The notes beneath the pieces are model-generated. The model did no database searches. It was not told where the DNA came from and saw only the letters and a list, made by a program, of their open reading frames with translations. 64,000 bases of DNA from a virus. Made by a program: the position numbers and the translations under genes. Shown in pieces: positions 2,037 to 30,281 of this stretch. The stretch is taken from positions 1-64,000 of the IMG/VR virus record IMGVR_UViG_3300012682_000001; one strand, written 5' to 3'. Within the stretch, counting starts at the first letter, position 1. Each line of letters opens with the position of its first letter.

Positions 2037-2318
2037 ATGAATAAAGTCATTCGGAAATACCCACTCAAACTAACCGACACTCAGGAACTACTAATGCCGC
2101 ACGGAGGGCAAATCCTTACGGCTCAAGTCCAGGATCAATACCAAGGAGAGGTGCTATGCCTCTGGGCGCTAGTGGACCCTGAGTCTCCATACGTGTCAGC
2201 CAGGCAGATTATGGTCATTGGGACCGGAAGCCCCGTGGAATCCACATCGCTGGTTTACATCTCCACCGTCCAGATGAGCGGTGGCGCGCTGGTGTGGCAC
2301 ATCTTCGAGCAGCCATGA
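2037..2318 (+). CDS. hypothetical protein
   Basis: Internal ATG (MNKVIRKYPLKLTDTQ...) of track ORF 1950..2318; stop coupled to next start. Confidence 0.55.
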   Translation: MNKVIRKYPLKLTDTQELLMPHGGQILTAQVQDQYQGEVLCLWALVDPESPYVSARQIMVIGTGSPVESTSLVYISTVQMSGGALVWHIFEQP

Positions 2319-3145
2319 GCATTAAGGTAATGTCCAAAGTGTTTGAGTGGTCCCAAGCCGAAGGGACTGATCGTCTCGTGATGTTGGCTCTGGCCGACTT
2401 CTGTGATGATGACGCCGTGTGCTACCCTGGAATCTCCCGGATTGCCAAGAAGTGCAGGATTTCCGAGCGCACAGTCCAGCGATCACTTATGTCTCTTCGA
2501 TCGCTTGGGGAGCTGTGGCAGGAGATGGGGGCCGGTGTCGAGGTGAAAGGAAAGGGCTTCACCAGCAAGTATGAACTGCGCTTAAAACCGGGGTGTCAGG
2601 ATGTCACCCCGAAACAGGACCGGGGTGACACTGGTGGTAAAACCGGGGTGACAGTCTTGTCACCCAAACCATCAGTAGAACCATCAGAAGGTATAGGTCT
2701 TGAGGACAAAGGAGGTCCCAGGAAACGTCCCAGTCACGACCTCTTCTCAGACCTACTCCCTCAAGAGTGGATTCCAGACTTCGAGTTCGCTGATAGCTGG
2801 AAAGGTTTCGTGGACATGCGGAGAGCTAAACACCCTCTGACCGACAAAGCGGTTAAGCTCCTCGCGGGCAAGATGCGCAAATGGGGCAAGCTGAAGTCCC
2901 GAATCGCCCTCGACAACGCGACCATCGGGCACTGGAGAGACCTCTACGAGCCGAAGCTGGAGGAGCTACCAGCCCCAAAGCCCCAACCCAGCGACTCCAG
3001 CAGCCGCTACCCAGACTTCATCCAGTCCTACCCCAGCGAGAAGACTCGAAATGATTTCCCCGAGTGGTCTCAGTCTCTGCCTCCGTGGCTGAAGACTGAG
3101 TTCAATCGGTGGATGCAGAGCGGTAAATACACCACACAAAACTAA
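2315..3145 (+). CDS. HTH DNA-binding, replication-initiator-like protein
   Basis: N-terminal winged-HTH-like segment VMLALADFCDDDAVCYPGISRIAKKCRISERTVQRSLMSLRSLGEL, as in phage initiator/DnaD-like proteins. Lies upstream of DnaB. Start set at the ATGA-coupled MSIKVMSKV. Confidence 0.6.
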   Translation: MSIKVMSKVFEWSQAEGTDRLVMLALADFCDDDAVCYPGISRIAKKCRISERTVQRSLMSLRSLGELWQEMGAGVEVKGKGFTSKYELRLKPGCQDVTPKQDRGDTGGKTGVTVLSPKPSVEPSEGIGLEDKGGPRKRPSHDLFSDLLPQEWIPDFEFADSWKGFVDMRRAKHPLTDKAVKLLAGKMRKWGKLKSRIALDNATIGHWRDLYEPKLEELPAPKPQPSDSSSRYPDFIQSYPSEKTRNDFPEWSQSLPPWLKTEFNRWMQSGKYTTQN

Positions 3146-3149
3146 ACCT

Positions 3150-3590
3150 ATGAAATCTGAATCAAACACCGAAGCCGAAATGAGAACCGAGGAAGCCCCG
3201 TCGCCCGAAACCATGGAGGCTCTCGGCGAATACATCACGTCGCTCGTCGAGCGAGAGCACGACTATGGGACATGCGTTTACGCGATGAGTCTCGCCGCCA
3301 CGGCGGCATTCCAGCATGTGGCGTCCAGGCTCGGCGCCACGGGCTTCCAAGCGTCTTGCGCCGATCTGGACATCTTGCGCCGCACGCGGCTGATGGACGG
3401 CCCGTTCACGATCCTTAAGGCCAAGGACATGCTCTATCCGCAATACGACCTGCCGGAGAAACTGCGAGAGGCAATGGAATCATGGAGGGATTGGGCCGCC
3501 ACCGAATGCGCGAAGAAGCTGAAGGAATCAGGAGAGCACACCCACCCGGACGTGAAAGCGCACTGGGAGAGGATGGCCACACAAAACTAA
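3150..3590 (+). CDS. hypothetical protein
   Basis: Track ORF, compact spacing, globular-looking composition. Confidence 0.6.
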   Translation: MKSESNTEAEMRTEEAPSPETMEALGEYITSLVEREHDYGTCVYAMSLAATAAFQHVASRLGATGFQASCADLDILRRTRLMDGPFTILKAKDMLYPQYDLPEKLREAMESWRDWAATECAKKLKESGEHTHPDVKAHWERMATQN

Positions 3591-3593
3591 ACC

Positions 3594-4205
3594 ATGAGCA
3601 CAACACCATCAGCCCAGTTCACCGGATTCCCGAAGATCGCGCGCCTCTCTCGCGAAGTAATAATTAGTGAGAAAATCGACGGAACAAATGGGCAAATCTA
3701 CATCGGCGAAGACGGCGAGTTCCTAGTCGGATCACGCACCCGCTGGATCACTCCAGAGCAGGACAATCACGGGTTCGCCAAGTGGGCCTACGAGCACCGG
3801 GAAGAGTTGATGACGCTCGGGGCCGGTCGCCACTTCGGAGAGTGGTGGGGTAGCGGCATTCAGCGCGGTTACGGACTACCCAGGGGCGAGAAGCGCTGGA
3901 GCCTATTCAACGTCTCCCGCTGGGCGCTTTACGGGACGACACCGAGACTGATCCCGCAGGCTGATCCGAGAATCGAGAAATACCAGGACGTGGCGCCGCC
4001 ATGCTGCCATCTGGTTCCGGTGCTGTTCCAGGGGATGTTCGAGACCGTTCAGGTGGAGGCTGCTATTTCGATACTTCGCCATCACGGGAGCCAAGCGTCA
4101 CCCGGATTCAAAGACCCCGAGGGCGTGGTTTGCTTCCACGGAGCCGCCAACACCGGATTCAAAAAGACGCTGGTGAAAGACGAAGCCCCTAAGTCGATTC
4201 GATGA
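3594..4205 (+). CDS. minimal ATP-dependent RNA/DNA ligase-like nucleotidyltransferase
   Basis: Motif I EKIDGTNG (KxDG lysine), EG-type motif IV PEGVVCFH, motif V-like GFKKTLVK. Only 203 aa, so a nucleotidyltransferase domain with no obvious OB domain. Confidence 0.65.
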   Translation: MSTTPSAQFTGFPKIARLSREVIISEKIDGTNGQIYIGEDGEFLVGSRTRWITPEQDNHGFAKWAYEHREELMTLGAGRHFGEWWGSGIQRGYGLPRGEKRWSLFNVSRWALYGTTPRLIPQADPRIEKYQDVAPPCCHLVPVLFQGMFETVQVEAAISILRHHGSQASPGFKDPEGVVCFHGAANTGFKKTLVKDEAPKSIR

Positions 4206-5608
4206 AGTCTGCAAACTTGCAGGACCGAACCAAGTATATCCCCGACACCCACCGCATCCTACCCCAGTCCCTCGACGCCGAGCGGGGAATCCTAAGCAGC
4301 TTCGTCCTCAGCCCCGTCCACGTCGGAGAGCTACTCCACGAGAAGCACATCACCCCCGAGCACTTCCACCTTCCGGCACACGGCGTCATCTTCGAGGTGC
4401 TAATGGGCCTGTGGCGCGATCAGAAGCCGATCGACTTCATCATCCTCACCGACCAGCTAAGGGAAACTGGGAAACTGGACAACTGCGGAGGCCCGGCATT
4501 CATCACCGAGCTGTTCACCTTCCTTCCCACCGCAGCGAACGCCAGCTACTACACGGAGATCGCCACCGACAAGCACACCCTACGAGAGCTGATCCGGGTC
4601 TGCACGGAGTTCGCGGCAAGGGCCTACGAAGAGACAGAAATGGCCCCAGCGCTGGTCAGCGAGGCCGAGGAGGCAATTCTGGGCATCTCCCGGTTCTCTA
4701 AGGCCTCAGAGGACGACTACAAGACCACCCACGATACAGTGATGGAGGTGATGCACGACCTCGACGCAGCCCAGCAGCGCAAGGGGGCTATCGGGGGAAT
4801 CTCCACAGGCTTCCATAAACTGGACGAGATGACGGACGGCCTGCACCCCGGAGAGATGATCGTCATCGCCGCGCGCCCGAGCATGGGGAAGACTGCCCTG
4901 GCGATGAACATGGGTGAGAGCATGGCCATCCATCACAGGATTCCAACCGCGGTCTTCAGCCTTGAGATGACCCGCAAGCAGCTCGTCCAGCGAATGATCA
5001 TGGGACGAGCCCGCGTGAACTGGGTGAAGTTCCGATCAGGCTACATGGAGGACAGGGACAGCGAGGCGATCGGAGCCGCTTCTGGGCACATCGCCGCCGC
5101 ACCCCTCTACATCAACGACAAGCACGGAATCTCCATCGCCTACGCATCTGCAATCCTGAGGAGACTGAAGCGCAAGCACAACATCCAGGTCGCGATCTTC
5201 GACTACCTCCAGCTCCTCCACGGAGCCAAGAAATACAAAGGAGGAGAGCGCCATCAGGAGGTCGCAGAGATCAGCGGAGGACTGAAGAACTTGGCGAAGG
5301 AGCTGAACATCCCGATCGTGGTCCTGGCGCAGCTCAGCAGGGCGCCAGAGGGCCGCGGAGGAGAAAGCAAGGGCAGGCCCAAGCTCTCGGACATCCGGGA
5401 GTCAGGGAGCGTAGAGCAAGACGCAGACGTGGTTGGGCTACTCCACCGGGATCAATACTACGCGGAAACCCCCAAGGAGATCGAGGAGACCGAAGGCAAG
5501 GCCACGCTGATTATCGCCAAGTCCCGCAACGGCCCGACCGGAGACATCCCGCTGACCTTCCTGAAGGACTTCACCCGCTTTGAGAACTGCGCCAGGGAAG
5601 GAAAATGA
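4202..5608 (+). CDS. dnaB: replicative DNA helicase DnaB
   Basis: LPQSLDAERGILSSFVL N-terminal signature, GISTGFHKLDEMTDGLHPGEMIVIAARPSMGKTALAMN Walker A, IFDYLQLL Walker B region, 468 aa. Confidence 0.95.
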   Translation: MKSANLQDRTKYIPDTHRILPQSLDAERGILSSFVLSPVHVGELLHEKHITPEHFHLPAHGVIFEVLMGLWRDQKPIDFIILTDQLRETGKLDNCGGPAFITELFTFLPTAANASYYTEIATDKHTLRELIRVCTEFAARAYEETEMAPALVSEAEEAILGISRFSKASEDDYKTTHDTVMEVMHDLDAAQQRKGAIGGISTGFHKLDEMTDGLHPGEMIVIAARPSMGKTALAMNMGESMAIHHRIPTAVFSLEMTRKQLVQRMIMGRARVNWVKFRSGYMEDRDSEAIGAASGHIAAAPLYINDKHGISIAYASAILRRLKRKHNIQVAIFDYLQLLHGAKKYKGGERHQEVAEISGGLKNLAKELNIPIVVLAQLSRAPEGRGGESKGRPKLSDIRESGSVEQDADVVGLLHRDQYYAETPKEIEETEGKATLIIAKSRNGPTGDIPLTFLKDFTRFENCAREGK

Positions 5609-13153: not shown

Positions 13154-14662
13154 TTAGTTCTGATTTGGTTTCGGCTCTTTGATCATCTTGCGAACAGCAG
13201 CCGTATTCACTGATCGCTTGGTTTGGAAATACCCAGGCTCGCTGGCTGAAAGATACTTCCCTGCCGCGGACTCCCGCAGCTTCTCTACATTGTCTCCCAT
13301 GGCCTTCACGACCGGGGAGATGAACTGCGCGGCCTCGATGAGCGAGACCCCGAACTCGTCCGCAAGTTTGCAGACATTCTTGATCTCTGCGCCGGTCCAC
13401 CCGACGCACTCCGGCTTCTCGCCAGAGACATTGAACTTCTTCTGATACAGGCCCCAGATCGGAGCCTGTTGCTGCTCGGTCAGTAGGTCGAAGAAGAACG
13501 TCCCTCCATCGAACCTGCGCCGCAACTGAGGAGGCAGCCCCTCAATCGAATTGGCCGTCCCGATGAAGAACACATCGGAACCCCCCATGGCGTAGAGGGT
13601 CTGCATGGCATTTCGGATCAGCTTCTCTGAGTCGCCGACGATGCCGCCCTTCATTGAGCCCATGTCCAGAGTCAGGAACATACCCCCTGACTCGTTGCCC
13701 ATAGCCTTCCCGAGTTCGGTCTTACCCGTCCCCGCGAACCCATTGAACAGCACCCCGGACCAACTGTGGTCCTGCATGTGCGACAGGAACTGGTAGAGCG
13801 CATCCCGGTTCAACCCATTGGAGTCCCCGAGACCGGCGAACTGGTCGGCGATCTCATCGACCAGCACAAACATCTGAGGCTTGCGCTTGCCGCTGATCTT
13901 CATGCGGGCGTATTTCTTCACCTGATCCAGCCCTCCGATGTTGTCGAACGAGGCATCGCTTTCGATGATCGTCAGACCACTCACGGAGTTGATCGCACTG
14001 ATCTTGCGCTGCCGCAGGATCGGGATGTCCAAGCCGGACTTCCTCATCGCCATCGCCACAGAGTTCTCCGCGACGAACGCAGACAGCCCTCTGGTGGCCG
14101 ATACAGCCTGCTTCAGCACCTCCTCGCTTGGCTCCGGCAACTCCGAAGCGGTGAAGATGTTCTTGGTGATGGCTGCCAGCTCCCCCTCATCAGGAAGAGC
14201 CACGTCCAGCACGATCACATCATTGATCAGCTCCACCGGCACCCGACACGACGGGCACAGCAAGACCAGCGTCCTGCGGCTCGCCTTGAACGGGTCACGG
14301 CAGTTAGCGATCGAGGTGATGGCAGTCAGTAGGTTTCCCTGCTCCTTCGTCTCCAGCAGGAGGTGCGCGTTATCCATGAAGAGGATCGAGCCCTCGCCCA
14401 TCTTCTCCAGCGCCAGCATCAGGGCCTCCTGCGGGTTGGCTGAGGTGATCGCCGGGGGCGCTCCGTCATTGATGACCGAAGCCTGAGCCTCGCCCTCCTT
14501 GTTCACGCCGAGGATTCCGCTGTTGATGTTCCAGCGAAGCGAGGGGGCGGTGCTCATCGACGCGATCTTCGAGACCACAGACGACGGGTCCGGGCACTGG
14601 ATGATGATGATTGGAACCGCAGCGTTGCGAGCGCGGCGGAATGTTTCGAGATAGTTTGTCAT
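13154..14662 (-). CDS. Ycf46-type AAA+ ATPase with swapped Walker A/B blocks
   Basis: Degenerate N-domain (ILFMDNAHLL, VLDVALPDEGEL), then FDNIGGLDQVKKY, FVLVDEIADQFAGLGDSNG (13853-13870), GFAGTGKT (13718-13741), DVFFIGTANSIEGLPPQLRRRFD. Confidence 0.85.
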   Translation of the reverse strand: MTNYLETFRRARNAAVPIIIIQCPDPSSVVSKIASMSTAPSLRWNINSGILGVNKEGEAQASVINDGAPPAITSANPQEALMLALEKMGEGSILFMDNAHLLLETKEQGNLLTAITSIANCRDPFKASRRTLVLLCPSCRVPVELINDVIVLDVALPDEGELAAITKNIFTASELPEPSEEVLKQAVSATRGLSAFVAENSVAMAMRKSGLDIPILRQRKISAINSVSGLTIIESDASFDNIGGLDQVKKYARMKISGKRKPQMFVLVDEIADQFAGLGDSNGLNRDALYQFLSHMQDHSWSGVLFNGFAGTGKTELGKAMGNESGGMFLTLDMGSMKGGIVGDSEKLIRNAMQTLYAMGGSDVFFIGTANSIEGLPPQLRRRFDGGTFFFDLLTEQQQAPIWGLYQKKFNVSGEKPECVGWTGAEIKNVCKLADEFGVSLIEAAQFISPVVKAMGDNVEKLRESAAGKYLSASEPGYFQTKRSVNTAAVRKMIKEPKPNQN

Positions 14663-18183: not shown

Positions 18184-18863
18184 TCGCAATACTTGCATCT
18201 GCTGCCATCAATATCAAACCAAAACTCATTCGCGAGAATGGTCTCATCCACCTGCTCATCGGAGTTTGCATCGTTATACGCAGCTTCGAGCACACGATAA
18301 ATCCAGCGCATGAAGTCCCTGGCGGCCTCGATGAGGTCGGCCTCCGCCTTCTCTCCCTCTGGGTCAGGGGATACTGGATCGTATGACTCATCATCCGTGA
18401 TCGTCACATCGAACTCCGTGCAGTGCTCGTGGCTGTAGTGGCCCCGGTGCTCCACTTTGAATGACGAGGCTGTATCCAGCCTGGCGATTCGATCGAACTC
18501 TGCGGCAATCCGCTTGATCTCGGTCGTAGCCGGGTCTTCACCCCAGCCATCCGCCACCTTGTCGGCCTTCACGTCGCTCGCGCGCCATGTTCCCTCGAAG
18601 CAGGCGCCATCGCCTTGTGACCAGAAGCCGGACCAGAAGATACACGGCTTTGGAGTCAGCTCCTTTCCTGACATACTCTTGCGGGCGCGGGTCTTGAACG
18701 CGATCCCCATCAGCTCGCCCTCCCGGACTGCTTCTTCGATCGCGCATTCGCTCCAGTAGTTGTCATCGCAAGACCCCTCGCGATACCACTCACGGGCTTT
18801 CTCTTTCGCTTTGTCCGATAGCTCATCGAACGTGAACGCTGTTACGGTTACTTGTTGGCTCAT
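18180..18863 (-). CDS. hypothetical acidic protein
   Basis: Internal ATG (MSQQVTVTAFTFDEL...) with GAAAGGAAA SD; IFWSGFWSQGDGACFEG block. Confidence 0.65.
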   Translation of the reverse strand: MSQQVTVTAFTFDELSDKAKEKAREWYREGSCDDNYWSECAIEEAVREGELMGIAFKTRARKSMSGKELTPKPCIFWSGFWSQGDGACFEGTWRASDVKADKVADGWGEDPATTEIKRIAAEFDRIARLDTASSFKVEHRGHYSHEHCTEFDVTITDDESYDPVSPDPEGEKAEADLIEAARDFMRWIYRVLEAAYNDANSDEQVDETILANEFWFDIDGSRCKYCE

Positions 18864-19141
18864 TTGGTTTGGTTTCCTTTCGTTATGTTGTTTGCTTTGT
18901 TGATGACGCACAGGAGGTTCTCCCAAGTCCCGCCACGCATCCGCCCTATAGACTTCAGGTGGTCTCGCGCATCTTCCAGCGCCTCTATCATCTCCGGCAG
19001 CAGATCAGCCGCTGCCTTGTTGGGGCATTTGGATGGGTCGCGCTCTGCGAAGCGAATCCACCGCTGCCTTTCAATGTCGGTGAGGGCATCCCATTCATAG
19101 GAGTTCCCACACCATTTTCCGAACAGCTCTTGCGCGTTCAT
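18860..19141 (-). CDS. hypothetical protein
   Basis: Internal ATG (MNAQELFGKWCGNSYEWDAL...) of track ORF 18860..19519, ATGA-coupled on both sides. Confidence 0.5.
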   Translation of the reverse strand: MNAQELFGKWCGNSYEWDALTDIERQRWIRFAERDPSKCPNKAAADLLPEMIEALEDARDHLKSIGRMRGGTWENLLCVINKANNITKGNQTK

Positions 19142-19866
19142 TTCTCCTCCTTCATCATCAGCTTCCCGGTCTCCACGCTGAACACCGGATACGGAGCCTC
19201 TCCGTCCTCGAACCAGTCCGCGCCGAGGCAGAAGACTTTCGGGAATGCAGCCAACTCGGTATCGGTGATCGTTGGTCCGACCCACTGCTCGTAGCTCAAG
19301 GCTGCATCGAGATTTCCCGCTCCGGGAACGCAGGGAGAACAATACGCTGCATACGTGCAGTAGGGCGACTTGCTCACGAACACGTCGTAGTCCAGGCACT
19401 TCGAGAGAACGTAGCCGTCCTTCTCGTAGAGCCAGTCGGGTTCGTCGCACTGGTAGGTGTCTCCGAAGCGATCCGAGACGATAGACCACACGAGGTCGTC
19501 CCTCATATCTGTGGTCCATCCCCGCGATTCACGGAAGGCGGAGGCCAGCTCTTTCGCCATAACGGCGCGATCGGTGGCTCTCGACTCTCCGTAATACAGC
19601 TCAACGAGATCACCCTCAAGGGCGCTCTCCTGAGCTTCGTCTGACTCATCCCACTCGGCGTCGTATGTGGACACCAGCGAGTTGATTAGCTCTTCTTTCG
19701 CCGCCTCATAGCTGAGGTCTCGGGAGTTATAGAAGATGTCGTCCAGCGCCCAAGAGGACAGCGAGTTCTGCGCGATAACGCCATACCGGATACCCGTCTC
19801 CGGGTCCCTGTTGGCGGTTGATCCTGGGCCGGAGTAGTCCAGCCCTGCGTAGTTTGTGTTGCTCAT
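19138..19866 (-). CDS. hypothetical acidic protein
   Basis: Internal ATG (MSNTNYAGLDYSGPG...) one nt after the upstream stop; YCSPCVPGAGN block. Confidence 0.65.
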   Translation of the reverse strand: MSNTNYAGLDYSGPGSTANRDPETGIRYGVIAQNSLSSWALDDIFYNSRDLSYEAAKEELINSLVSTYDAEWDESDEAQESALEGDLVELYYGESRATDRAVMAKELASAFRESRGWTTDMRDDLVWSIVSDRFGDTYQCDEPDWLYEKDGYVLSKCLDYDVFVSKSPYCTYAAYCSPCVPGAGNLDAALSYEQWVGPTITDTELAAFPKVFCLGADWFEDGEAPYPVFSVETGKLMMKEEK

Positions 19867-19867
19867 G

Positions 19868-20179
19868 TTACGCTTCCTCCCCTTGGTATCCGAGGTCTTC
19901 CAGCAACTCATTGGTCCACCAGCACGACCCCTCCTTAAGCAGGAAGTCGATCACCTCCTGCTTGGAATCGAAGACCCCCATGTGCTCACTGGAATGGTCC
20001 GTCCGGTTATTGTATTCACATCCGCTGCTGTGCGAGTGCGTGAGGTGGAATCGATTGCCCTGCATTACCCGATAGGCGTTGTGGCCGATTCCGCTGTAGC
20101 TTCCGCCATCCCTTGAGGCGGAGGAGATTTTCTCTGCGCCGCTGAAATCAACGGGCGGGTGATTGTCGAATTTAGTCAT
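19868..20179 (-). CDS. hypothetical protein
   Basis: Internal ATG (MTKFDNHPPVDF...) with GAAAGGAAAG SD. Confidence 0.55.
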   Translation of the reverse strand: MTKFDNHPPVDFSGAEKISSASRDGGSYSGIGHNAYRVMQGNRFHLTHSHSSGCEYNNRTDHSSEHMGVFDSKQEVIDFLLKEGSCWWTNELLEDLGYQGEEA

Positions 20180-21636: not shown

Positions 21637-21723
21637 GGTGTTTTTGCTTTCTGTGTTTTGGCAGGGTGGCTTCCTGCCGGATTAGTTGTTGCCACTGGAA
21701 CCAGACTGGCTCCCTTGCTGCGG

Positions 21724-21744
21724 CCTCGGGGATCGGACCCGAAG
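21724..21744 (-). promoter_or_regulatory. conserved GGG-GATCGGA-CCC stem-loop, copy 3 of 3
   Basis: CCTCGGG / GATCGGA / CCCGAAG, extendable to 11 bp with 2 mismatches; 18 nt downstream of the stop at 21762. Confidence 0.5.
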
Positions 21745-21761
21745 CGGCAGACAGGAACTAG

Positions 21762-21959
21762 CTAGGCGAAGGCCTCTTCACTGGCCCACGCGGGCACGAT
21801 GTCTTCATACTGATCTGGCTCATGGAGCCCCAGGGCATCCACCCGGCCCTCACGGCGCTCTGCACGCCTGCGCTGCACGCCATCGAAGCGACGGGCCTTG
21901 CGGGCGCTAGCCGGAATGACTGACGAGCGGAGGTTGGTGGTCTTGATTTGTGTTTTCAT
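21762..21959 (-). CDS. hypothetical small basic protein (first gene of - block)
   Basis: Track ORF. Confidence 0.45.
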   Translation of the reverse strand: MKTQIKTTNLRSSVIPASARKARRFDGVQRRRAERREGRVDALGLHEPDQYEDIVPAWASEEAFA

Positions 21960-23113
21960 TGCTTTGTTTTTCTTTGTGTTATGCCGAGGGAGTTCTCGGC
22001 GCGTGTTATCTCCCGTTCTTCGTAATGAAGGACGACTGCTGAGCCCCGGAGCTTCCTCCGAGACCCAGCCGTCGTTCTACTTCGCGACCACCCACGGATA
22101 AATCCGCAGGCTCGCTACTGTGGCCACCTCACGGTGACCCGACGTGGTGCCGAGCTTTCACGCCCTCAGGCGTTATGGCAGGCTCGTGACCAGAGCTTCC
22201 TCAAAGCTCTGGTGATCTCATGGCTTCCCGTTTAATGAACCGCGCACCTGGTTAAGATGCGCCAGCTCAACAGCCCGCACTTGAGGTTCGGCTCACGGTT
22301 ATTTACCCCGTGGCCGCCATGCAGGCGTCCATGAATCCACCCAGGAGAGAGCAGCCTTGTAAGGCCGCCCGTCTCTTGACTGATACTGTTTAATGTTCCT
22401 GTTGCGCCCTGAGTGAGACCTCCACACGGCCACGGCATTTATCCACAAAGGGACCGCGGCGGTGCGTGCTCATAGAGTCCGGTTTTCAATACCGTGACAG
22501 CGCGTTTTACTGACCTCCTTTCCAGCAGGAGGCAACCCATCCATTCGATAATCCCACCATCGAACTTGGGCAACGCGCTACGTCCGAGCAATCGCGACGC
22601 AACATTCATTCCATGCTCTCCCGGTGGCATTGAGAGCCGGGGAGCTTTAATCGCAGACGACTTCTCATCATCGTCTGCTCGTGGCCAAGGCCGCTACTGT
22701 TTGTGCGGGTGAACGTGGCCATTTCCAATCGAGTGCTCGGGGAAGCTGAGCATCCCCTTGACGGCACGGTCAGCCCGTGCGACAACCGGAGCAACTACGC
22801 ATCCGACATCACACAGCCTGAGCGCCATCGCTCGATCTGAAGTTGTCAAAGAACTACCACCCGCTCGGTCTCTGCCAGGAGACCTTAGGGAGAGGGGCGC
22901 TGGGGGATAAACCCCCAGCATTCTTTCTCGTTACCACCACCAACTTTGCAGTTTGAGCGGTGGGTCTGAAATCGAACCCTGCACCTGAGGAAAGTGCTCT
23001 ACGTCTCTGTGCCGTTAAGCATAACTCAGGATATAAAAATGGTGGCGACGACACCTACCCCTCTTCTGTGTTGACCCCGAGACCCCGTTGACAGAACCTC
23101 TGGACATAAAGCC
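21960..23113. other. 1154-nt ORF-free, hairpin-dense region between divergent blocks; candidate large structured ncRNA and/or regulatory/origin region
   Basis: Only short, overlapping, junk-like ORFs in all six frames. Many perfect stems: 21983-22000, 22047-22060, 22190-22212 (9 bp), 22514-22532, 22653-22678 (8 bp), 22764-22780, 22867-22884, 22899-22919 (8 bp). Confidence 0.45.
22899..22928 (+). terminator. terminator-like hairpin inside the ORF-free region
   Basis: GCTGGGGG ATAAA CCCCCAGC followed by ATTCTTTCT on the + strand. Confidence 0.4.
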
Positions 23114-23377
23114 ATGGCGACGAGCGACCACACCCTGCGTTTCCGCCAGGACAGCACCGAGAGCCTGATCACCCTAAAGGCATCCCTCATCGCCAAGGAG
23201 TCCGTCTTCTCCCAGCAGGCCATGGGCAGCAAGAGCTTCACCCGCGACCTGCGCTTCATGGCAGACCAGATCAACGCCATCTGCTTCGTGCTGGCGGAGC
23301 GCGGTTACACCGTCCACCCCACGGCGCCGACTGCGAATTACGGAGCTGGTATTTGTGATTTCAGCAACGTCCAATGA
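23114..23377 (+). CDS. gpW-like head-tail joining protein
   Basis: 87 aa, immediately upstream of and ATGA-coupled to the portal, as lambda W is to B; helical Leu/Ile pattern. Confidence 0.5.
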   Translation: MATSDHTLRFRQDSTESLITLKASLIAKESVFSQQAMGSKSFTRDLRFMADQINAICFVLAERGYTVHPTAPTANYGAGICDFSNVQ

Positions 23378-25209
23378 CGCTCAACGGAAATACTCCCAAC
23401 GGGGAAATCCAGCTCGCCCGCCTGTATGACGGAGGGGGAAACATCGTCACAGAATGGAACCCACGCTTCGAGGCTGTCCGTCGCGAGCGCGAGATTCTCT
23501 TCGGAGCAGGCGGATACAACCCCGTAGCCGAGCGTAGAGGCAGGGCCAAGGCCGCAGGGGGCTCCGAGAACTGGATCGCCAACAGAGACCGCGTGAAGGC
23601 TATGGCGGACGCCCGTGACGCCTTCACCTTCGACTGGATCGGAGGCGTCATCGCCAAGGTGGTTCTCTACGTCTGCGGTCGCCTCCACGCCAAGAGCGCC
23701 ACAGGAGAGGGCCAGATCGACCAGATGTATGACGACTACTTCCATGGTTGGTGCGGGGACGAGCGCGACGCGCAAGGACTCCCTCGCTGCGACTTCAGTG
23801 GCCGCCATCGATTCCTAAAGCAAGTCCAGCTCGCCTTCATGTCCTTCCTCGTGGACGGGGATCACGGGCTACTGGAGATCAACCCGGAGTTTTCACCCAA
23901 CGGAGAGTTCTGCCTCCAGAACATCGAGGCAGACCGCATTGGCTCCCCCATGGAGGGCTCGATCGCCGAGGACTACATCGGCGGAGTGAAGATCGACCCG
24001 ATGACCGGGCGCGTGCAGTTCTACCGCATCTTCCAGAGGACGCGGACGAACCAATACATCAACCCACAAGAGGTCCCGCCAGAGTCATTTATTCACGTCT
24101 TCGACCCGGATCACGGAGATGAATACCGGGGCCGCACCAAGCTCCTGCGCATCCTCAACGACCTCCGGGACATCCGGGAGTGGATCGAAGCGGAGAAGAT
24201 CGCAGGCAAGACCCAGAGCCAATACGCGGCACTGATCGGAACCAAGGACCCGATGAGCGGACAAGGAGCCTCTGCGTGGAGCGACAAGACGGCAGAAGGA
24301 ACCCCAACCCAAACTGCCCAATGGGGCAAGCTCCTCAAGCTGGCAGAAGGCGAGAACTTCTCGATGCTCTCCCCAGCCGCCCGACCCAGCGGAGCCTTCA
24401 TGCAGTTTGTGGACACGCTGATCCGCAAGATGGGCGTGAGCCTTAACCTTCCCTACGGATTCCTATGGGACCTCGCCACCCTCGGAGGCGTCACGGCCCG
24501 CATCGAAGTGCAGAGCGCCCTCCGCCAGATTCAATACTGGCAGGACAACATCCTCGTCGGACTGATCCTCGATCGTGTGCGCCAGAAGGTGATCGCACAG
24601 GGGATAGCCATGCAGATGCTTCCGGCGCACCCGCTGTGGAAGAAGTGCTCTTGGAATTTCGGTCAGTGGATCACCACCGATCAGGGCTACGAGATGTCTT
24701 CCGACCTCGAAGGCCTTGGTGCTGGCATCCTGCGCATCGACTCAGTGACCGGGAAATACGGAACCACTCCTCGCGAGGTGCTGACCTCCAATGCCAGCGC
24801 GGCCAACGACGCCCTGGGTGTTGGAGCCGAACACGCCCTGCCGGTCGAGACGTTCGCCCGCGGCCTCTGGCCCGACATCACGAATCAGAAGGCTGCGTTC
24901 CTCGCGCAGACGCCGATTCCTTCGCCTCCTCCTGGTAGCTTCGAGGCCATTGGAGACAAGGGGGTCGCCAAGATGGTTGAGATCGCGCAGTCCGTTAAGG
25001 AAGGGACGATGGATCGGGAAAGCGCCATCGCGATGATGCGAACCGCCTTCGGGTTCACGCCGAAGCAAGCCGACGCACTGGTCCCTGACGAGCCGACCCC
25101 AGCAGAGGCGAACCGGGCCGCTGGCCTTGATGTGAAGGGCAATCATCCGAAGCCAGCAGCCGCGAAGACCTCCAGCAGCAACGGCAGCAGGAAGCCAGCA
25201 CGCAAATGA
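23374..25209 (+). CDS. portal protein (lambda gpB-like)
   Basis: 611 aa. Position after the gpW-like gene and before the internal/protease/capsid genes. Acidic central domain; C-terminal Ala/Lys/Pro tail. Confidence 0.8.
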   Translation: MTLNGNTPNGEIQLARLYDGGGNIVTEWNPRFEAVRREREILFGAGGYNPVAERRGRAKAAGGSENWIANRDRVKAMADARDAFTFDWIGGVIAKVVLYVCGRLHAKSATGEGQIDQMYDDYFHGWCGDERDAQGLPRCDFSGRHRFLKQVQLAFMSFLVDGDHGLLEINPEFSPNGEFCLQNIEADRIGSPMEGSIAEDYIGGVKIDPMTGRVQFYRIFQRTRTNQYINPQEVPPESFIHVFDPDHGDEYRGRTKLLRILNDLRDIREWIEAEKIAGKTQSQYAALIGTKDPMSGQGASAWSDKTAEGTPTQTAQWGKLLKLAEGENFSMLSPAARPSGAFMQFVDTLIRKMGVSLNLPYGFLWDLATLGGVTARIEVQSALRQIQYWQDNILVGLILDRVRQKVIAQGIAMQMLPAHPLWKKCSWNFGQWITTDQGYEMSSDLEGLGAGILRIDSVTGKYGTTPREVLTSNASAANDALGVGAEHALPVETFARGLWPDITNQKAAFLAQTPIPSPPPGSFEAIGDKGVAKMVEIAQSVKEGTMDRESAIAMMRTAFGFTPKQADALVPDEPTPAEANRAAGLDVKGNHPKPAAAKTSSSNGSRKPARK

Positions 25210-28200
25210 GCCCACTCCAGAAGGCAGGGATCACCATTGGAGTCATCGGGGCCGGAGGCGCCGCATGGAAGCTGCGAAACCAAGAAGGCAGAGAAAGAGC
25301 GCGATCAGCGGCTGCCCCCGCTGCGGTTGGCGCCCTGTTTGGCGCAGGCTTTGGACTACAGAGGGGGTTCGCCGGTGGATTAGTGGACGCAATCAAGAAC
25401 CGACCAGACCTCCTGAAAGGTAATATGGGACCACTTCCATATGCGCTAAAGCACGCTGGTTTAGGAGCCCTTAAAGGCGTTATTCCAGGGCTCGCAGCCG
25501 GAGCAGGATCAGGATTCCTAATCCGCAAGATCATGCAGCACGACAAGCCCCCGAGGCAGCAGCTCTCCTCCCGGCATAAGCTCATCCAGTTTGACGACTT
25601 CCAGCCCCACCAGCGCCGCCATAGTGAACCTAAAATGAGCAACATCAGCCGATTGATCGAACTGGCCCGTGGCGACTACTTCAAGCGCTACGCTAAGGAC
25701 AGCGACTACAGCCAGGACCCGAACGCCAGGACGGTGCGCGATGCGGTCTTCAAACCAACGCCGATCGACAAAGAATACCAGACCCCAGGGCGAGGCGGAG
25801 TGCATGGCCCACCTGAAAGACCAGAGGTCCGCAAGGCCAGAACGCTCGCCTCAAGGCAGACCCGCAGCGCGATCGAGGCGATGGTCCAGGCAGACATTAA
25901 GACTGACCTCACTGGAAAGCACACCGCCCACCGGAAGTCCATCGACGACGCGATCAAGGACCACCAAGCCCAAACGGGATACATCCGCTCACAGGGCCTC
26001 AACGAGGAAGCCGCCAAGCGCGATGCTGAGCACAAGCTGAAGATCAAGGCGACAGAGAGCAAGTATTCGGACTCGATCCTCGGACGCAACAAGACCGACC
26101 CAGTGATGGGAACCCAGGCTCAGACGGCCAAGACAGCCAAGCGCCAGAGGCGGCTCATTAAGGGTGCCCCAGGTCCCCGCAAGATGTCCGAAGCCGACAA
26201 GCTCAGCGTGCTTGCAGACCGGGATAAGTTCGGCAGCTCCATGGCGGCAGAGCTGAGGGAAAGAAACAACATCCTTCGCGGAGCCCGCAAGGCTGCCGGG
26301 GCGACGAACATCAAGGCAGCCAATGCCAAGTTCGCGCCCATCATGGCAGGCATCCCGGCCTCCGGTGAAAGGAAGGCCATCCCCGGCCTTAGGGACCTGG
26401 TGTCTTCAGAGGTGGCCAAGCGGACTGCCGGGGACTCCGATCGTGCAGCGAACGTCAAGCGAGCCGTGAAGGCCAAGGCGGAAGCGCGCATGGGTCGCAA
26501 CGTCACTGAGCCAGAGATTCTCAAGACGCGGGTCAACGAAGTCACCAAGCCGATCTTCAGTCCTGCTGCATTGGGCGGAGAAGCCGCTCAATACGACCGA
26601 GACTCCATCGCCAGTAAACTGGGCCTCAAGGGCCGCAATGTGGATGCGATCAAGGCCCGCTACTCACTCCTCGCCAACCAGCAGGCGACAAGGAAGGCCC
26701 AGGTGACCAGCCAGGTCATCAAGGAAGGCAAAGTCTTCGAGCCCATCCGCTCAGCGACTCACGCCAGCCGCAGCTACCCAGCCCTCAATAAAAACCTCGG
26801 CAAGATCAAGGTCGGAGCAGCCGGACTCGCTGCCGCAGCGATCGGGACCGGCGTAGCTATCGAGCGGAGGATCAAGGCCAAGCGTGAGAAGAAGAAAGAG
26901 CTGGTCCAGTTCGCACTCAAACTCTCGCCCACCGGAGCAGAGAGGGCTGCAAAGCGCGCGGTCAAGAAGGCGCTGCCGGTTCTTCAGGGCAAGGGCTTAA
27001 TCGGGCCGACGCTCACCCCAACCACATCCATCGGCTCTCCAATCGGGCAGGTAATAACGGAGAAGAAAGCCATGGTGAACGGAGGGCTGGTCAACCCAGA
27101 GGAGCACGTAGCCATACTCAAGAGCCGCATTGCGGAGATGGTTAATGACTCCAGAACGGCCAAGGGATTCCTGAAGAGCAGGGTCCAAAACCAGCAAACC
27201 GCCCACGAGAAGCTCGTCGAGAATCTCCGTGACCGCTACACCACGGAGGCAAGCACCCTAAAGAGCGACTTTAGGAAGGTCCGATCCCACGACACAGAGG
27301 TGGCCAAGAAGCGCCTCTTCATCGGAACTGGAGCAGCGGGATCAGTAGGAGCCGTGGCTGGATACGAGACCGGAAGGCCCAGTAAACGAAAGGAGGTTCA
27401 GTTCTCGGAGAAAGAGAAAACCAGCACCACCCGTAAGCTGCTGATCGGAGGAGGCCTTCTGGCGGGCGCTGCGATCGGAGCCCGAACCAGCCCGCGTCTT
27501 CTCCGCAGGGGCCGCGCCATGCAGGAGGGCGAAAGCCTTCTGGGAAAAGTGGTCTATTCCAATCAAGGCGTTACCAGCGCAGCGGATGTGATCCACCTTC
27601 CAGGAGGCCGCAGCCTTAAGTCGATCCTAAAAAAGGCTAGCAGGTCCGAAGGCATGAAGGGAACCGCAGCGAGAGCCGCCCTGAAGGTGGATAGCTTCAT
27701 GGGAATTCCCCAGCGCCACTACGGAGTAGGAGTTGGCAGCGGAAGGATCGCCGAAGTCAGCCGGACGAACGGAAGGCGGGTCGTTCCCGAAGAGAGCTTT
27801 GGCAAGGTTATGGTGGAGAGCGAGGGTAAGATTCTCAAGGAGCCAATCCGCCGACAGCACGAGGGCCGCTCTGGCACCATGGACGACCAGGCGGCAGGCG
27901 CCTTCAACCGCCGCTACGAAGAGGCTCAGGGTTCCAATAAGTGGAAGAAAACCAACATCAACATTTGCAGCGGCACTAACTGCGAGTCCTATGCCAACAA
28001 CCTCGCGGGATTCGGACCGAAGACCCGCCAGATAAACTCGATCATCACGGGCGGAGTCGGAGGGGCGCTGGTAGGCGGAGCAGCCACATCCCAAGCCACC
28101 CGAAAGAAGAAATCAAAGGGGCCGATAATGTTCAGCTCACGATCCAAGAAAGACGAAACCCTGCGCGGAGCAGCCCGCATGGGCATCAGCTCTGGAGTCA

Positions 28201-30281
28201 CTGGAGCTGCTGGTGGGTTAATCCTCGGCCTGGCCGGGACCGGGGAAGGCCGGGCATTCGGTAAGACCAACGTCCTAAAGGCACTGAAGTCAGCAGGGAA
28301 ATGGGGAGGCGGCCTCGCAGCCGCAGGTGCAGGCGGAGCGCTGATCGGCTCGGCGATCCTAGGGGCGCCCAAGCGCAACGAAGGCGCTGCCTACACCAAG
28401 CGAGGAGCCATCGGAGGAGGGGTTGCCGGGGCTATCGCAGGAGGAACCATCGGAGCCCTTGCGTTACGCAATAAGTGGAGCGCGGGAATCATCGCTAAAT
28501 ACGCCAGGGACTGGAGGCCCCTGCAAGTCATCCAGAAGAGCGGAGCATTCTCCAGAGCCGCGATCGGAGCCACCGCAGGAGGCGCCGCAGGAGCAGCCCA
28601 GCTTGCGGATGAAGGCCAGCAGGTTGATACACTCAACTCTGCCACAAGGAAGAAGCAATACCGCATGTCCTCGAACCTACAGCCCATCCAGTTCGCAGGC
28701 CTTCCCGTAGCTCAGGACCGCTACCGCAAGGCCATCCGAGAGAAAGAGGGCGAGCGCGCCGACAGCAACTACCTCCGTAGCGCAGCCGCAGGCACCACCA
28801 TAGCGGCTCTCCTGAGGCGCAAGACGGGTTTAGCCATACCCCAGGCCCTCCTGACCGGCGCGGGGATCGGCGTGGCCTCCCAGGCGGCAATGCGGGCCAC
28901 CTCGGCCAAGGACGCCTTCGGAGACCGCTCCTACAACGACAAGCGCAAAGAGCGGCTCCCATGGCAGGCAGGCGGCCTCGTCGCCACTGGCCTCCTCGCC
29001 AGGCGTGCGGGTAACAAGCTGCGTGACCTCAAGGTGGGCGTTAGTCGGACTGGTCGGAATATCCGCACCGGAGCGCTGGTCGCAGGTGGGGCGTATCTCG
29101 CCAACCGCATGCTGTTCAATTCCATCGGAAAACCCATCGAGTTCGCCTACGACCCAGTGGCCGACGCCCTTCGCGAGCGCAGCCAGAAAGACCGCCAGAA
29201 ACGCAGCTCGATGCGCGCCGCAGAAGACCTCTACCGAAAGGCCGGACGGGGCAAGCGACTGGCGCGGGACGCCTCCCTCGCACTCAAGGGTGAGAAGAGC
29301 GTCGATAGTCGTGGCCGTGAGCGTGTCCCGGAGTGGCAGAAGCCGTGGGTCAAGCAAGCCGTGGGGCTCGGTATCGCCGCGCTGGCGATCAGGAAGGCCC
29401 GTGGCAGCTATCGGGGGATCAAGGAGGCCGCAGCCGCGCAGAAGCAAGCAACAGGCGAAGCGCATGGCATCCCCGGAGCGGTGGACCGGATCGGCCAGCT
29501 CTTTAAGCGCTCGGACACCTACACCCACGGAGGCGCAATCGTTACGCCATATTCGGCGCTCCAGAGCACGCTAAAGAACAAGATTCCTCGATCGATCGCC
29601 AAGCCCGCATTGGCCATTCGCCGGGAGATTAGGAATACCGTCCGAGACACCAAGGCAGTCATCAATGACAAGGTGGACGACGTGGTTAATCGATGGACTG
29701 GGACCACACCGGGTGTCGAGGCGGCTCGGGTCGTGGCCGCTGACCAAAACAAGGTCAAGAAGGTCAAGGACCGGCTGAAACAAATCCGAGCGGTCAACGC
29801 CGGAGTGAAGCCAGGCAAGCTCTCAGAGTTCTCCGTTCATCAGTTCGCCACGACCCTCGACGACTGGGACATCAGCCACCGCAGCCGCAACACGGCGATC
29901 GTCCGCATCCCCGGAGGCCAGAAGCGAGACCGTCGCCAGAAGGACTACCTGGAGACCGCAGCAGGGCAGAGGATGGTCCGAAACATTGCTATCGGTGGGT
30001 CACTGGCAGCCGGAGCAGGAGGCGCAGCGATCTTTGACCGGCACATGAACTCAGTGAAGAATGCAGCGATGGCCGAGGGCTTCAAGGACCACCCTTCAGG
30101 CTTCAAAGTCAGCGGAGTGAATGAGGCTGCCGAGAAGGCGACCTCCAAGGCAGCCAGAGCGGCCAAATTCGCAGCCATCCAGAGGGAGTTCCGGCAGGCA
30201 GCAAAGAGGTTTGTAATCAAGGCATCCTCCAGAGACCCGCTGATCACCCTCAGCGTCAAGCTCGACTACCTGATCTCCTGA
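25206..30281 (+). CDS. 1691-aa internal virion protein: repeated glycine-zipper modules with embedded LRAT/NlpC-P60-like domain
   Basis: About 17 Gly/Ala-rich hydrophobic segments (e.g. GGGLAAAGAGGALIGSAILGA) alternate with Lys/Arg-rich linkers and x-I/V-Q/E-F motifs. H-box RHYGVGVGSGRIAEV and NC-box TNCESYANNL. Confidence 0.85.
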   Translation: MSPLQKAGITIGVIGAGGAAWKLRNQEGRERARSAAAPAAVGALFGAGFGLQRGFAGGLVDAIKNRPDLLKGNMGPLPYALKHAGLGALKGVIPGLAAGAGSGFLIRKIMQHDKPPRQQLSSRHKLIQFDDFQPHQRRHSEPKMSNISRLIELARGDYFKRYAKDSDYSQDPNARTVRDAVFKPTPIDKEYQTPGRGGVHGPPERPEVRKARTLASRQTRSAIEAMVQADIKTDLTGKHTAHRKSIDDAIKDHQAQTGYIRSQGLNEEAAKRDAEHKLKIKATESKYSDSILGRNKTDPVMGTQAQTAKTAKRQRRLIKGAPGPRKMSEADKLSVLADRDKFGSSMAAELRERNNILRGARKAAGATNIKAANAKFAPIMAGIPASGERKAIPGLRDLVSSEVAKRTAGDSDRAANVKRAVKAKAEARMGRNVTEPEILKTRVNEVTKPIFSPAALGGEAAQYDRDSIASKLGLKGRNVDAIKARYSLLANQQATRKAQVTSQVIKEGKVFEPIRSATHASRSYPALNKNLGKIKVGAAGLAAAAIGTGVAIERRIKAKREKKKELVQFALKLSPTGAERAAKRAVKKALPVLQGKGLIGPTLTPTTSIGSPIGQVITEKKAMVNGGLVNPEEHVAILKSRIAEMVNDSRTAKGFLKSRVQNQQTAHEKLVENLRDRYTTEASTLKSDFRKVRSHDTEVAKKRLFIGTGAAGSVGAVAGYETGRPSKRKEVQFSEKEKTSTTRKLLIGGGLLAGAAIGARTSPRLLRRGRAMQEGESLLGKVVYSNQGVTSAADVIHLPGGRSLKSILKKASRSEGMKGTAARAALKVDSFMGIPQRHYGVGVGSGRIAEVSRTNGRRVVPEESFGKVMVESEGKILKEPIRRQHEGRSGTMDDQAAGAFNRRYEEAQGSNKWKKTNINICSGTNCESYANNLAGFGPKTRQINSIITGGVGGALVGGAATSQATRKKKSKGPIMFSSRSKKDETLRGAARMGISSGVTGAAGGLILGLAGTGEGRAFGKTNVLKALKSAGKWGGGLAAAGAGGALIGSAILGAPKRNEGAAYTKRGAIGGGVAGAIAGGTIGALALRNKWSAGIIAKYARDWRPLQVIQKSGAFSRAAIGATAGGAAGAAQLADEGQQVDTLNSATRKKQYRMSSNLQPIQFAGLPVAQDRYRKAIREKEGERADSNYLRSAAAGTTIAALLRRKTGLAIPQALLTGAGIGVASQAAMRATSAKDAFGDRSYNDKRKERLPWQAGGLVATGLLARRAGNKLRDLKVGVSRTGRNIRTGALVAGGAYLANRMLFNSIGKPIEFAYDPVADALRERSQKDRQKRSSMRAAEDLYRKAGRGKRLARDASLALKGEKSVDSRGRERVPEWQKPWVKQAVGLGIAALAIRKARGSYRGIKEAAAAQKQATGEAHGIPGAVDRIGQLFKRSDTYTHGGAIVTPYSALQSTLKNKIPRSIAKPALAIRREIRNTVRDTKAVINDKVDDVVNRWTGTTPGVEAARVVAADQNKVKKVKDRLKQIRAVNAGVKPGKLSEFSVHQFATTLDDWDISHRSRNTAIVRIPGGQKRDRRQKDYLETAAGQRMVRNIAIGGSLAAGAGGAAIFDRHMNSVKNAAMAEGFKDHPSGFKVSGVNEAAEKATSKAARAAKFAAIQREFRQAAKRFVIKASSRDPLITLSVKLDYLIS

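Follow-up and report, generated by a model that had tools for sequence, protein, structure and literature searches.

A candidate large structured RNA in the gene-free gap between the early and late genes of an uncultivated phage

What occupies the long gene-free gap between the early and the late genes of an uncultivated phage? The question is raised by a stretch of DNA of 64,000 nucleotides (nt), called the window throughout, which comprises positions 1 to 64,000 of IMG/VR virus record IMGVR_UViG_3300012682_000001 and most of a phage contig of ~70 kb (69,645 nt in the cluster record of its portal protein). The gap lies between the first leftward early open reading frame (ORF) and the rightward genes for a W-like protein and a portal protein. 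We consider it likely that it encodes a conserved structured RNA on the minus strand. That this RNA is a giant structured 5' leader of the early operon, acting in cis, has about an even chance of being right. The locus comprises the following features.

21960..23113, no strand assigned: ORF-free gap that separates the first leftward early ORF from the rightward W-like and portal genes
21960..23010, minus strand: candidate structured RNA of ~1.0 kb, a leader and/or a processed non-coding RNA, indicated by homology, covariation and strand asymmetry; its 5' end is a prediction
21762..21959, minus strand: first early ORF, 65 amino acids (aa), arginine-rich, directly downstream of the candidate RNA (from the ORF list and its translation)
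23114-23377, plus strand: W-like gene, 87 aa, adjoining the gap, with homologues in 54 loci
23374-25209, plus strand: lambda-family portal gene (PF05136, E = 1e-31; PHROG 21)

The gap carries no coding signal. Its G+C content by codon phase is flat from ~21940 to 23080 (0.47-0.73, with no stable phase), compared with the usual ~0.8/0.6/0.4 in the flanking genes. Only 16 ORFs of 30-75 aa, overlapping one another, can be drawn in it, and none of these is conserved or has a translated match in any related locus; as a control for this search, the adjacent 87-aa W-like gene matched 54 fetched loci. An earlier reading of this DNA, made without database searches (the sequence-only reading), had described 21960-23113 as containing only short, overlapping, junk-like ORFs, and these results agree with it. 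Between two related loci, L006 and L008, the gap is 82% identical over 920 aligned nt, whereas codon position 3 of the portal and W genes is only 51-55% identical, and most indels in the gap have lengths that 3 does not divide. Selection therefore acts on the gap, but not at the level of protein.

It is also unusually rich in hairpins. The nine listed by the sequence-only reading are all present, letter for letter, where it had placed them. Counting stems of at least 6 bp with loops of 3-10 nt, the gap contains 12 perfect hairpins at 8 distinct places, against 2.4 +/- 1.9 in dinucleotide shuffles (maximum 9 in 500) and 2.7 +/- 2.2 in the other 1154-nt tiles of the window (maximum 8). The comparison of folding energy with shuffled controls, which the same reading had proposed, showed that the gap folds far better than shuffles on either strand, with full-length z, from 24 shuffles per strand, of -8.3 on minus and -6.4 on plus. 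In 200-nt sliding windows, z ranged from -0.8 to -4.9 within the gap, mostly -1.5 or below, and was mostly near 0 (-1.5 to +1.0) in the coding flanks. Five coding control segments gave z of -1.4 to +0.4, apart from two exceptions that are weighed below.

Homologous regions were located with the W-like and portal genes (23114..25209) as anchor. The portal protein has ~160 metagenome relatives at 40-69% identity, many of them on contigs of 50-80 kb, and the DNA upstream of the portal gene was taken from ~35 distinct relatives. A subset of these, uncultivated phages of ~70 kb, has an ORF-free gap of 0.5-1.2 kb in the identical genomic position. The gap of the window is homologous to that of L010/L011 over nearly its whole length (nhmmer E = 1e-13) and to that of L071 (group A). 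The gaps of L001, L006 and L008 are homologous to one another with E of 1e-30 to 1e-158 (group B), and further homology groups join L054 with L042, and L033 with L021, L029 and L050. Between groups, only certain blocks and hairpins are recognizable. A single global MAFFT or E-INS-i alignment of all groups was untrustworthy in the centre, and we therefore worked per group and with a covariance model. Of the BLASTN route to homologous regions suggested by the sequence-only reading, the search of 50,697 GenBank phage records with the gap returned no match, and the homologues came instead from the portal relatives and nhmmer. Exact-pattern scans of IMG/VR with the conserved blocks retrieved the known contig or chance matches only; one locus from these scans, L055, was rejected as an unrelated high-G+C phage. 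The genome collection yielded one distant portal relative, without an RNA match.

Helices in the gap keep their pairing through double substitutions, as shown by two RNAalifold analyses of minus-strand alignments of three sequences each: A3, made from group B (L001, L006 and L008), and A9, made from group A (the window, L010 and L071). In A3, 254 pairs were predicted, with 91% of cells paired, and 69 pairs had changed on both sides, against 29 +/- 3.9 with shuffled partners and 5-17 with partners slid by 1-3 columns. In A9, 176 pairs were predicted, of which 69 had changed on both sides; shuffled partners gave 32 +/- 4 such pairs and slid partners 11-17. The search for homologues and covariation that the sequence-only reading had recommended thus turned out in favour of a conserved RNA structure.

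Compensatory substitution is likewise seen in a single hairpin with AACGAC in its outer arm, for which a covariance model, R1, was built from seven copies (the window and six other seeds). R1 matched the window exactly once, at 22016..22084 with 53 bits, and had 13 matches beyond it, namely the six seed loci, six further relatives and L071; the seven new matches had E of 5e-10 to 1e-3. All copies are situated upstream of the portal gene, in antisense orientation to it. In the 13 aligned sequences (including the window, without L071), most positions of the inner stem use three or four different Watson-Crick pairs. With filters off, R1 had no match in the short-gap relatives L002, L007, L052, L070, L072 and L073, in which 230-380 nt separate the first early gene from the W-like gene. 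L058-L069, from the exact-pattern scans, had no R1 match either. All examined long-gap relatives carry an R1 match; long gap and RNA element thus co-occur, and the phage clade can do without the element. This pattern of presence and absence among close relatives indicates that the element was repeatedly gained or lost within the clade. A second model, of the 5' module, was dropped and replaced by a motif search, since MAFFT misplaced one of its hairpins, that with the loop CUGGYA.

Which strand is transcribed is suggested, in four independent ways, by features that distinguish an RNA from its complement. Counting four-base loops on Watson-Crick stems of at least 4 bp in 13 homologous regions, we found 17 GNRA tetraloops in minus orientation and none in plus, and four UNCG loops in minus and none in plus, an asymmetry drawn from 95 hairpins (p ~6e-9). 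GNRA loops in the flanking coding DNA, 11 versus 6 among 236 hairpins, were near the chance rate. Among helices predicted in both orientations, G-U pairs (which read as A-C on the other strand) numbered 22 on minus only and 8 on plus only; the corresponding count for the modelled R1 hairpin was 13 versus 4, again favouring minus. In the window, the 13-bp inner stem of this hairpin pairs throughout on the minus strand, where three of its pairs are G-U; on the plus strand these three would be A-C mismatches. L010 has the same pattern. Folding energies agree: the minimum free energy of the gap is -513 kcal/mol on minus and -445 on plus, and the consensus fold of the alignment reaches -218 and -184 kcal/mol, with 67 and 42 compensatory pairs, respectively. 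These asymmetric features argue for an RNA and against a double-stranded DNA site.

The elements of the candidate RNA and its immediate edge are listed here from its 5' to its 3' side.

23014..23025, no strand assigned: A/T-rich palindrome GTTATGCTTAAC (TTATnnnTAAC), kept in L010, L001, L008, L042 and L071
22962..22979, minus strand: hairpin GGGU-UCGAUUUCAG-ACCC, with GGCU..AGCC around the same loop in L010; helix 2 of A9
22934..22946, minus strand: AAGUUGGUGGUGG, a UUGGYGG block and possible 5' strand of a long-range helix, found in L010, L071, L042, L033, L021 and L001
22899..22928, plus strand: terminator-like hairpin GCTGGGGG-ATAAA-CCCCCAGC with a T-rich tail, from a consensus scan
22867..22884, minus strand: hairpin with the conserved hexaloop CUGGCA; the loop CUGGYA is kept and the stems are replaced (GGUCUC in the window, CUCCCGGCC in L010, GCGC in L001, L006 and L008, CCGG.C in L071)
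22842..22855, minus strand: AGUUCUUUGACAAC, also written AGUUCUUUGACA, the most conserved primary-sequence block; GTTC[ACT]TTGA[CA]A is present a single time, oriented alike, in each of 9 homologous regions, and L071 has a variant of it
22820..22833, minus strand: hairpin GAGCG-AUGG-CGCUC; a GAGC..GCUC hairpin is present in all group A and group B sequences
22756..22780, minus strand: hairpin GCACGG-GCUGA-CCGUGC, then CGUCAAGG, kept in L010, L071, L006 and L008; helix 8 of A9
22653..22678, minus strand: 8-bp hairpin GCAGACGA..UCGUCUGC, exact, in a segment absent from L010 and L071
22514..22532, minus strand: hairpin CCUCCU-GCUGGAA-AGGAGG, exact, in the variable central part
22328..22345, minus strand: 18-nt block CCUGGGUGGAUUCAUGGA, 18/18 identical in L010 (blastn) amid diverged sequence; sixteen-base matches to it elsewhere in IMG/VR are chance
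22190..22212, minus strand: perfect 9-10-bp hairpin with loop UGAGG, exact, deleted in L010 and L071; L020 has a similar UGAGGAA loop on a different stem
22122..22139, minus strand: GNRA hairpin GGUCACC-GUGA-GGUGGCC, with GCGA or GUGA loops on covarying stems in L010, L001, L006 and L008; helix 24 of A9 (100% paired, 3 double changes)
22094..22107, minus strand: hairpin GCGGAU-UU-AUCCGU, whose stems covary (CGUCGA/UCGACG in L001, CGCUGA/UCAGCG in L006, CAUUGA/UCAAUG in L008)
22016..22084, core 22032-22076, minus strand: signature hairpin with outer arms AACGAC and GUCGU(U), the sole R1 match of the window; its layout is AACGAC, a small internal loop, a variable stem (13 bp in the window, 10-14 bp overall), CA and GUCGU
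22018..22030, minus strand: small hairpin CUUC-AUUAC-GAAG, with covarying equivalents in L033, L054, L021, L010, L004, L032 and L041
21991..22003, minus strand: CGCGCCGAGAACU with a conserved CCGCC-type block, possible 3' strand of the long-range helix with 22934-22946; the (A)CCGCC block is kept in 8 of 11 homologues
21983..22000, minus strand: hairpin GCCGAG-AACUCC-CUCGGC, exact, followed by an A/C-rich tract and a start codon; equivalents on other stems occur in L010 and L071 (GCCGC..GCGGC), L033 (GCCAGC..GCUGGC) and L008

Several of these elements (22867-22884, 22122-22139, 22094-22107, 22018-22030 and 21983-22000) keep their loop or their position while the stems are replaced. The block at 22842-22855 may pair with GUCAA at 22757-22762, according to the predicted structure of A9, in which this is the invariant helix 5. 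A CsrA- or Shine-Dalgarno-like GGA loop theme was considered and is not general. The element ranges in length from ~490-570 nt (L004 and L020) to ~1,240 nt (L001), the 5' and 3' modules being retained and the centre differing.

What the analysis shows is a conserved, covarying and non-coding element with a preferred strand and with no terminator between it and the early genes; a promoter, RNA ends, a cis action and a switch are inferred, as follows. Leftward transcription would begin at a promoter within ~100 nt of the W-like gene and produce a minus-strand RNA of ~1.0 kb in the window and 0.5-1.2 kb in the relatives. The palindrome TTATnnnTAAC at 23014-23025, which contains a -10-like TATnnT, is a candidate for this promoter; judged by its sequence, it could serve the leftward promoter as its -10 region or as an operator, or else fold as the RNA's first hairpin. 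At the corresponding site in L020, TTGAAA-N16-TAAATA can be read. The TTGACA in the block at 22842-22855 was rejected as a -35 box, since in no homologue does a -10 box follow it and conserved structure lies upstream of it. The RNA would then be built from a 5' module (the CUGGCA-loop hairpin, AGUUCUUUGACA, the GAGC hairpin and the GCACGG hairpin), a variable, lineage-specific central part that is itself structured, and a 3' module (the GNRA hairpin, the long AACGAC...GUCGUU hairpin, the small hairpin and the CCGCC block) that stops ~25-60 nt short of an A/C-rich translation start.

At its 3' side, no terminator would keep the transcript from continuing into the first early ORF at 21959. A consensus scan of 21700-23400 found no terminator-like site on the minus strand. 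With the exception of L006, every homologue has one or two hairpins after the 3' module, and then an A/C-rich tract (e.g. ACACAAAGAAA) and a start codon; the distance from the 3' module to this tract and start codon is ~25-100 nt, even where the first ORFs are unrelated. Given this constant arrangement and the absence of a minus-strand terminator, the RNA is most simply read as the 5' leader of the early operon. Its most likely effect would be control of the early transcript in cis, through stability, processing, read-through or access to the first start codon. RNAalifold pairs AGUUGGUGGUG (22934-22946) with CGCCGAGAACU (21991-22003) in a long-range helix that would close the whole RNA (helix 3 of A9, 93% paired and nearly invariant), and the two blocks, UUGGYGG and CCGCC, are both widely conserved. 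The local hairpin at 21983-22000 could compete with this long-range pairing and so form a switch. When the two ends of the RNA were paired with RNAduplex, the hybrids had giant loops and were uninformative.

Several observations weigh against the leader model or against parts of it. The strand, the ends and even the expression of the RNA are read from sequence and not from transcripts. A sigma-70 consensus scan of both strands found no promoter in the window, although the consensus may not be that of the host, and the placement of the promoter is therefore a guess. The long-range helix is invariant and therefore without covariation support, and in L006 a homing-endonuclease gene has replaced its 3' partner. 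Since the two full-length alignments hold three sequences each and the structures were predicted from these same alignments, the double-change counts are inflated; the margin over the controls is large despite this. The central 400-600 nt differ between groups and are not alignable across them. The short-gap relatives lack the element, and the early operon therefore does not need it; presence and absence, together with the ornate build, fit an accessory role in trans equally well. Strong folding is, moreover, not wholly unique to the gap: the two exceptional coding controls are minus-sense early segments, of which 18900-20071 folds unusually well (z = -6.35) and 13300-14471 has z = -3.07 (14 shuffles each), their plus strands giving z of ~0 and -0.7, respectively. 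Within the first segment, the ORFs 18860-19519 and 19138-19911 overlap in different frames, and either the gene calls there or a second structured element deserve a look.

The following features, in the window and in relatives, bear on the alternatives.

2294-5608: replication genes for an HTH_36 protein and a DnaB helicase, ~16 kb from the gap
23068..23093, plus strand: two TTGAC(C/A) repeats, separated by 11-13 nt and followed, 14-20 nt on, by the W-like start codon
61475-63337, plus strand: gpA-type large terminase gene, distant from the gap
L006 3545-4021 and 5114-5734, L008 5091-5633, L054 4205-4705, L071 1734-2327: homing-endonuclease-like ORFs at one or both edges of the RNA region, of HNH type or NUMOD3-bearing and possibly GIY-YIG; in L006, one such gene replaces the 3' tail of the RNA

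The same minus-strand RNA might be released from the early mRNA, or terminated before it, and act in trans as a stable non-coding RNA: a sponge, a scaffold, a self-assembling particle or an anti-defence agent directed at host or phage components. Comparable roles are suspected for GOLLD and ROOL. This is a real but unlikely alternative. It would suit the variable presence among close relatives, which suggests an accessory module; the size, together with how many GNRA loops and conserved unpaired blocks there are, as is typical of RNAs with tertiary structure; the homing-endonuclease genes at the edges, as around other conserved phage RNA genes; and the first early ORFs, which are unrelated proteins between groups, whereas the RNA is kept. 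However, the 3' end has neither a terminator nor a recognizable processing site, the distance from the 3' module to the start codon is constantly short, and comparison with Rfam revealed no similarity to any known trans-acting family. A more far-reaching version, which we regard as doubtful, is an undescribed class of large ornate phage RNA, with a 5'/3' core closed by the long-range helix and lineage-specific expansions, that would be autonomous after release (as a self-assembling RNA particle, a ribozyme, or a decoy for host defence or for an RNA-binding regulator) and be gained and lost as a cassette in phages of Verrucomicrobia-like hosts.

Explanations that do not involve a minus-strand RNA fare worse. 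A function of the DNA itself, as a replication origin, a packaging site or a cluster of operators for divergent promoters, with the hairpins as cruciforms or palindromic operators, is improbable for the gap as a whole, even though it lies between divergent operons and the TTATnnnTAAC palindrome and the TTGAC repeats near the W-like gene resemble protein-binding sites. The outer ~100 nt of the gap probably do act in that way. The TTGAC(C/A) repeats, kept in the window, L010, L042, L001 and L071, are presumed to serve late-gene control and may be the binding site of a regulator; they are too near the W-like start codon to be an ordinary -35 box. For the rest, iterons and repeat families are lacking (the only repeats are short, chance-like and in two copies), and G+C stays at 0.52-0.62 without an A+T-rich stretch. 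Initiator, helicase and terminase genes are all far off, and a cos site would be expected near the terminase genes at ~61 kb; the replication origin offered as an alternative by the sequence-only reading therefore shows none of the hallmarks looked for, namely three or more direct repeats, an A+T-rich unwinding stretch and a place within or beside the initiator and helicase genes. Neither GNRA loops nor G-U/A-C asymmetry between strands would be expected of double-stranded sites, and stems that change sequence freely while pairing is kept are the opposite of what sequence-specific proteins require. Still less probable is a plus-strand non-coding RNA of ~0.8-0.9 kb ending at the terminator-like hairpin, as proposed by the sequence-only reading. 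That hairpin exists as described: at 22899-22919, it has an 8-bp stem with seven G-C pairs, a 5-nt loop and the tail ATTCTTTCTC, matching the consensus of a stem-loop with a T-run on the plus strand only, and its minus-strand counterpart is one more stable hairpin without a U-tract. The plus strand also folds better than shuffles (z = -6.4), as any region made mostly of Watson-Crick helices must. But the terminator segment is absent from the two closest homologues, L010 and L071, and is therefore an insertion specific to the window, and conserved structure continues to the right of 22928, at 22934-22979, so that the conserved element extends past the terminator, which may serve to halt stray rightward transcripts ahead of the late genes. 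Plus-oriented GNRA and UNCG loops are lacking altogether, against 17 and 4 on minus, the signature hairpin would acquire three A-C mismatches, and the plus consensus fold is weaker, with fewer compensatory pairs. The central claim of a large structured RNA was right in that the region is conserved, supported by covariation and neither junk nor a set of small coding sequences; strand, ends and kinship had to be revised. Finally, decaying or unrecognized coding sequence, whether pseudogenes or genes for very small proteins, with hairpins as an incidental feature, is hardly credible. The 16 small ORFs could be so interpreted, but codon phase is without signal, relatives offer no translated match, indels are mostly not multiples of 3, and nucleotide identity lies far above that of synonymous sites.

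The leader model places the element directly before the 65-aa early ORF, which bears a weak N- and C-terminal resemblance to a 68-aa ORF at the same place in L010; a protein search with it matched only itself, with no database homologue. The leftward genes extend from 10.5 kb to 21,959, and almost all are unassigned in function. On the other side, a 1691-aa ORF without a Pfam or PHROG match (25206-30281, plus strand) lies directly 3' of the portal gene, and relatives have ORFs of 1171-1883 aa in the same position, one of which (L072) contains SNF2/Helicase_C. Terminase, W and portal genes are adjacent in lambda. In the window, the gpA-type terminase lies ~38 kb away from the lambda-type W-like and portal genes, and the structural block seems to have W and portal at its start and terminase at its end. 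The only named portal relatives come from Chthoniobacter and Verrucomicrobiaceae metagenome bins (P0102, P0110, P0120; L057), which suggests Verrucomicrobia as the host phylum.

Few classes of large structured non-coding RNA are known in bacteria and their viruses, among them the ribosomal RNAs, RNase P, group I and II introns, OLE, GOLLD, ROOL, HEARO and raiA. Each new class has opened new biology, and the element described here is a candidate for another. Its fixed genomic place allows partners to be guessed, its natural short (~0.5 kb) and long (~1.2 kb) versions define a core, and relatives without it are ready-made controls. If it is a cis-acting leader, it would be among the largest structured 5' leaders known in phage and would help to study how early genes are controlled in phages whose hosts, bacteria of soil and fresh water, are poorly studied.

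In neither the window nor 12 homologous loci does any Rfam 15 family, GOLLD and ROOL included, score as high as its gathering threshold. With E relaxed to 10, 21700-23400 gave only three chance matches to microRNA or small nucleolar RNA models at ~18 bits, and in the gap region no model reached E = 1. ARAGORN detected neither transfer RNA (tRNA) nor transfer-messenger RNA (tmRNA) genes in the 64-kb window. OLE, HEARO, raiA, group I and II introns and tmRNA are large structured bacterial RNAs too, but none had a covariance-model match (nor was tmRNA otherwise detected), and the locus lacks a reverse transcriptase, IscB, an intron-encoded protein and exon flanks.

A catalogue of candidate structured RNAs from IMG/VR describes motifs of 29-151 nt (PMC10690425). 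Like the element, they lie in conserved intergenic regions of uncultivated phages and show covariation, and several of our homologues are themselves IMG/VR contigs; the catalogue has no motif of this size (PMC10690425).

In the lambda pL-nutL-N leader and the put RNAs of HK022, structured elements at the 5' end of early transcripts bring about terminator read-through. The element resembles them in lying at the 5' end of a leftward early transcript, directly before the first small early ORF, in having an arginine-rich first ORF in the window and L010, and in its hairpins with GNRA-type loops. The first ORFs are basic in the window (65 aa), L010 (68 aa) and L054 (a small ORF), but not in L008 and L033. 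However, the element is ten times larger than nutL or put, and its first ORF is not conserved between groups. No boxA (YGCTCTTWA, at most one mismatch) was found inside 21960-23113, a weak test, as this consensus may not be that of the host. The resemblance to nut and put is one of position only.

GOLLD and ROOL are large ornate RNAs of phages and prophages whose structures were determined by cryo-electron microscopy, and together with OLE they form unexpected RNA-only assemblies (PMC12286853). The element shares with them a large, non-coding and hairpin-rich make-up (0.5-1.2 kb here), occurrence in some phages but not in their close relatives, many GNRA loops and a function that is still unassigned. 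The kinship proposed by the sequence-only reading nevertheless fails, since neither model matches the element in sequence or structure, even at E = 10. GOLLD is often adjacent to tRNA genes in phage genomes, whereas the window has no neighbouring tRNA genes. The element, moreover, has a fixed place at the start of an operon, from which no terminator separates it, and the length of its centre varies greatly between lineages. Judged by its sequence and predicted folds, it would represent a new RNA family of the same general kind as GOLLD and ROOL, belonging to neither.

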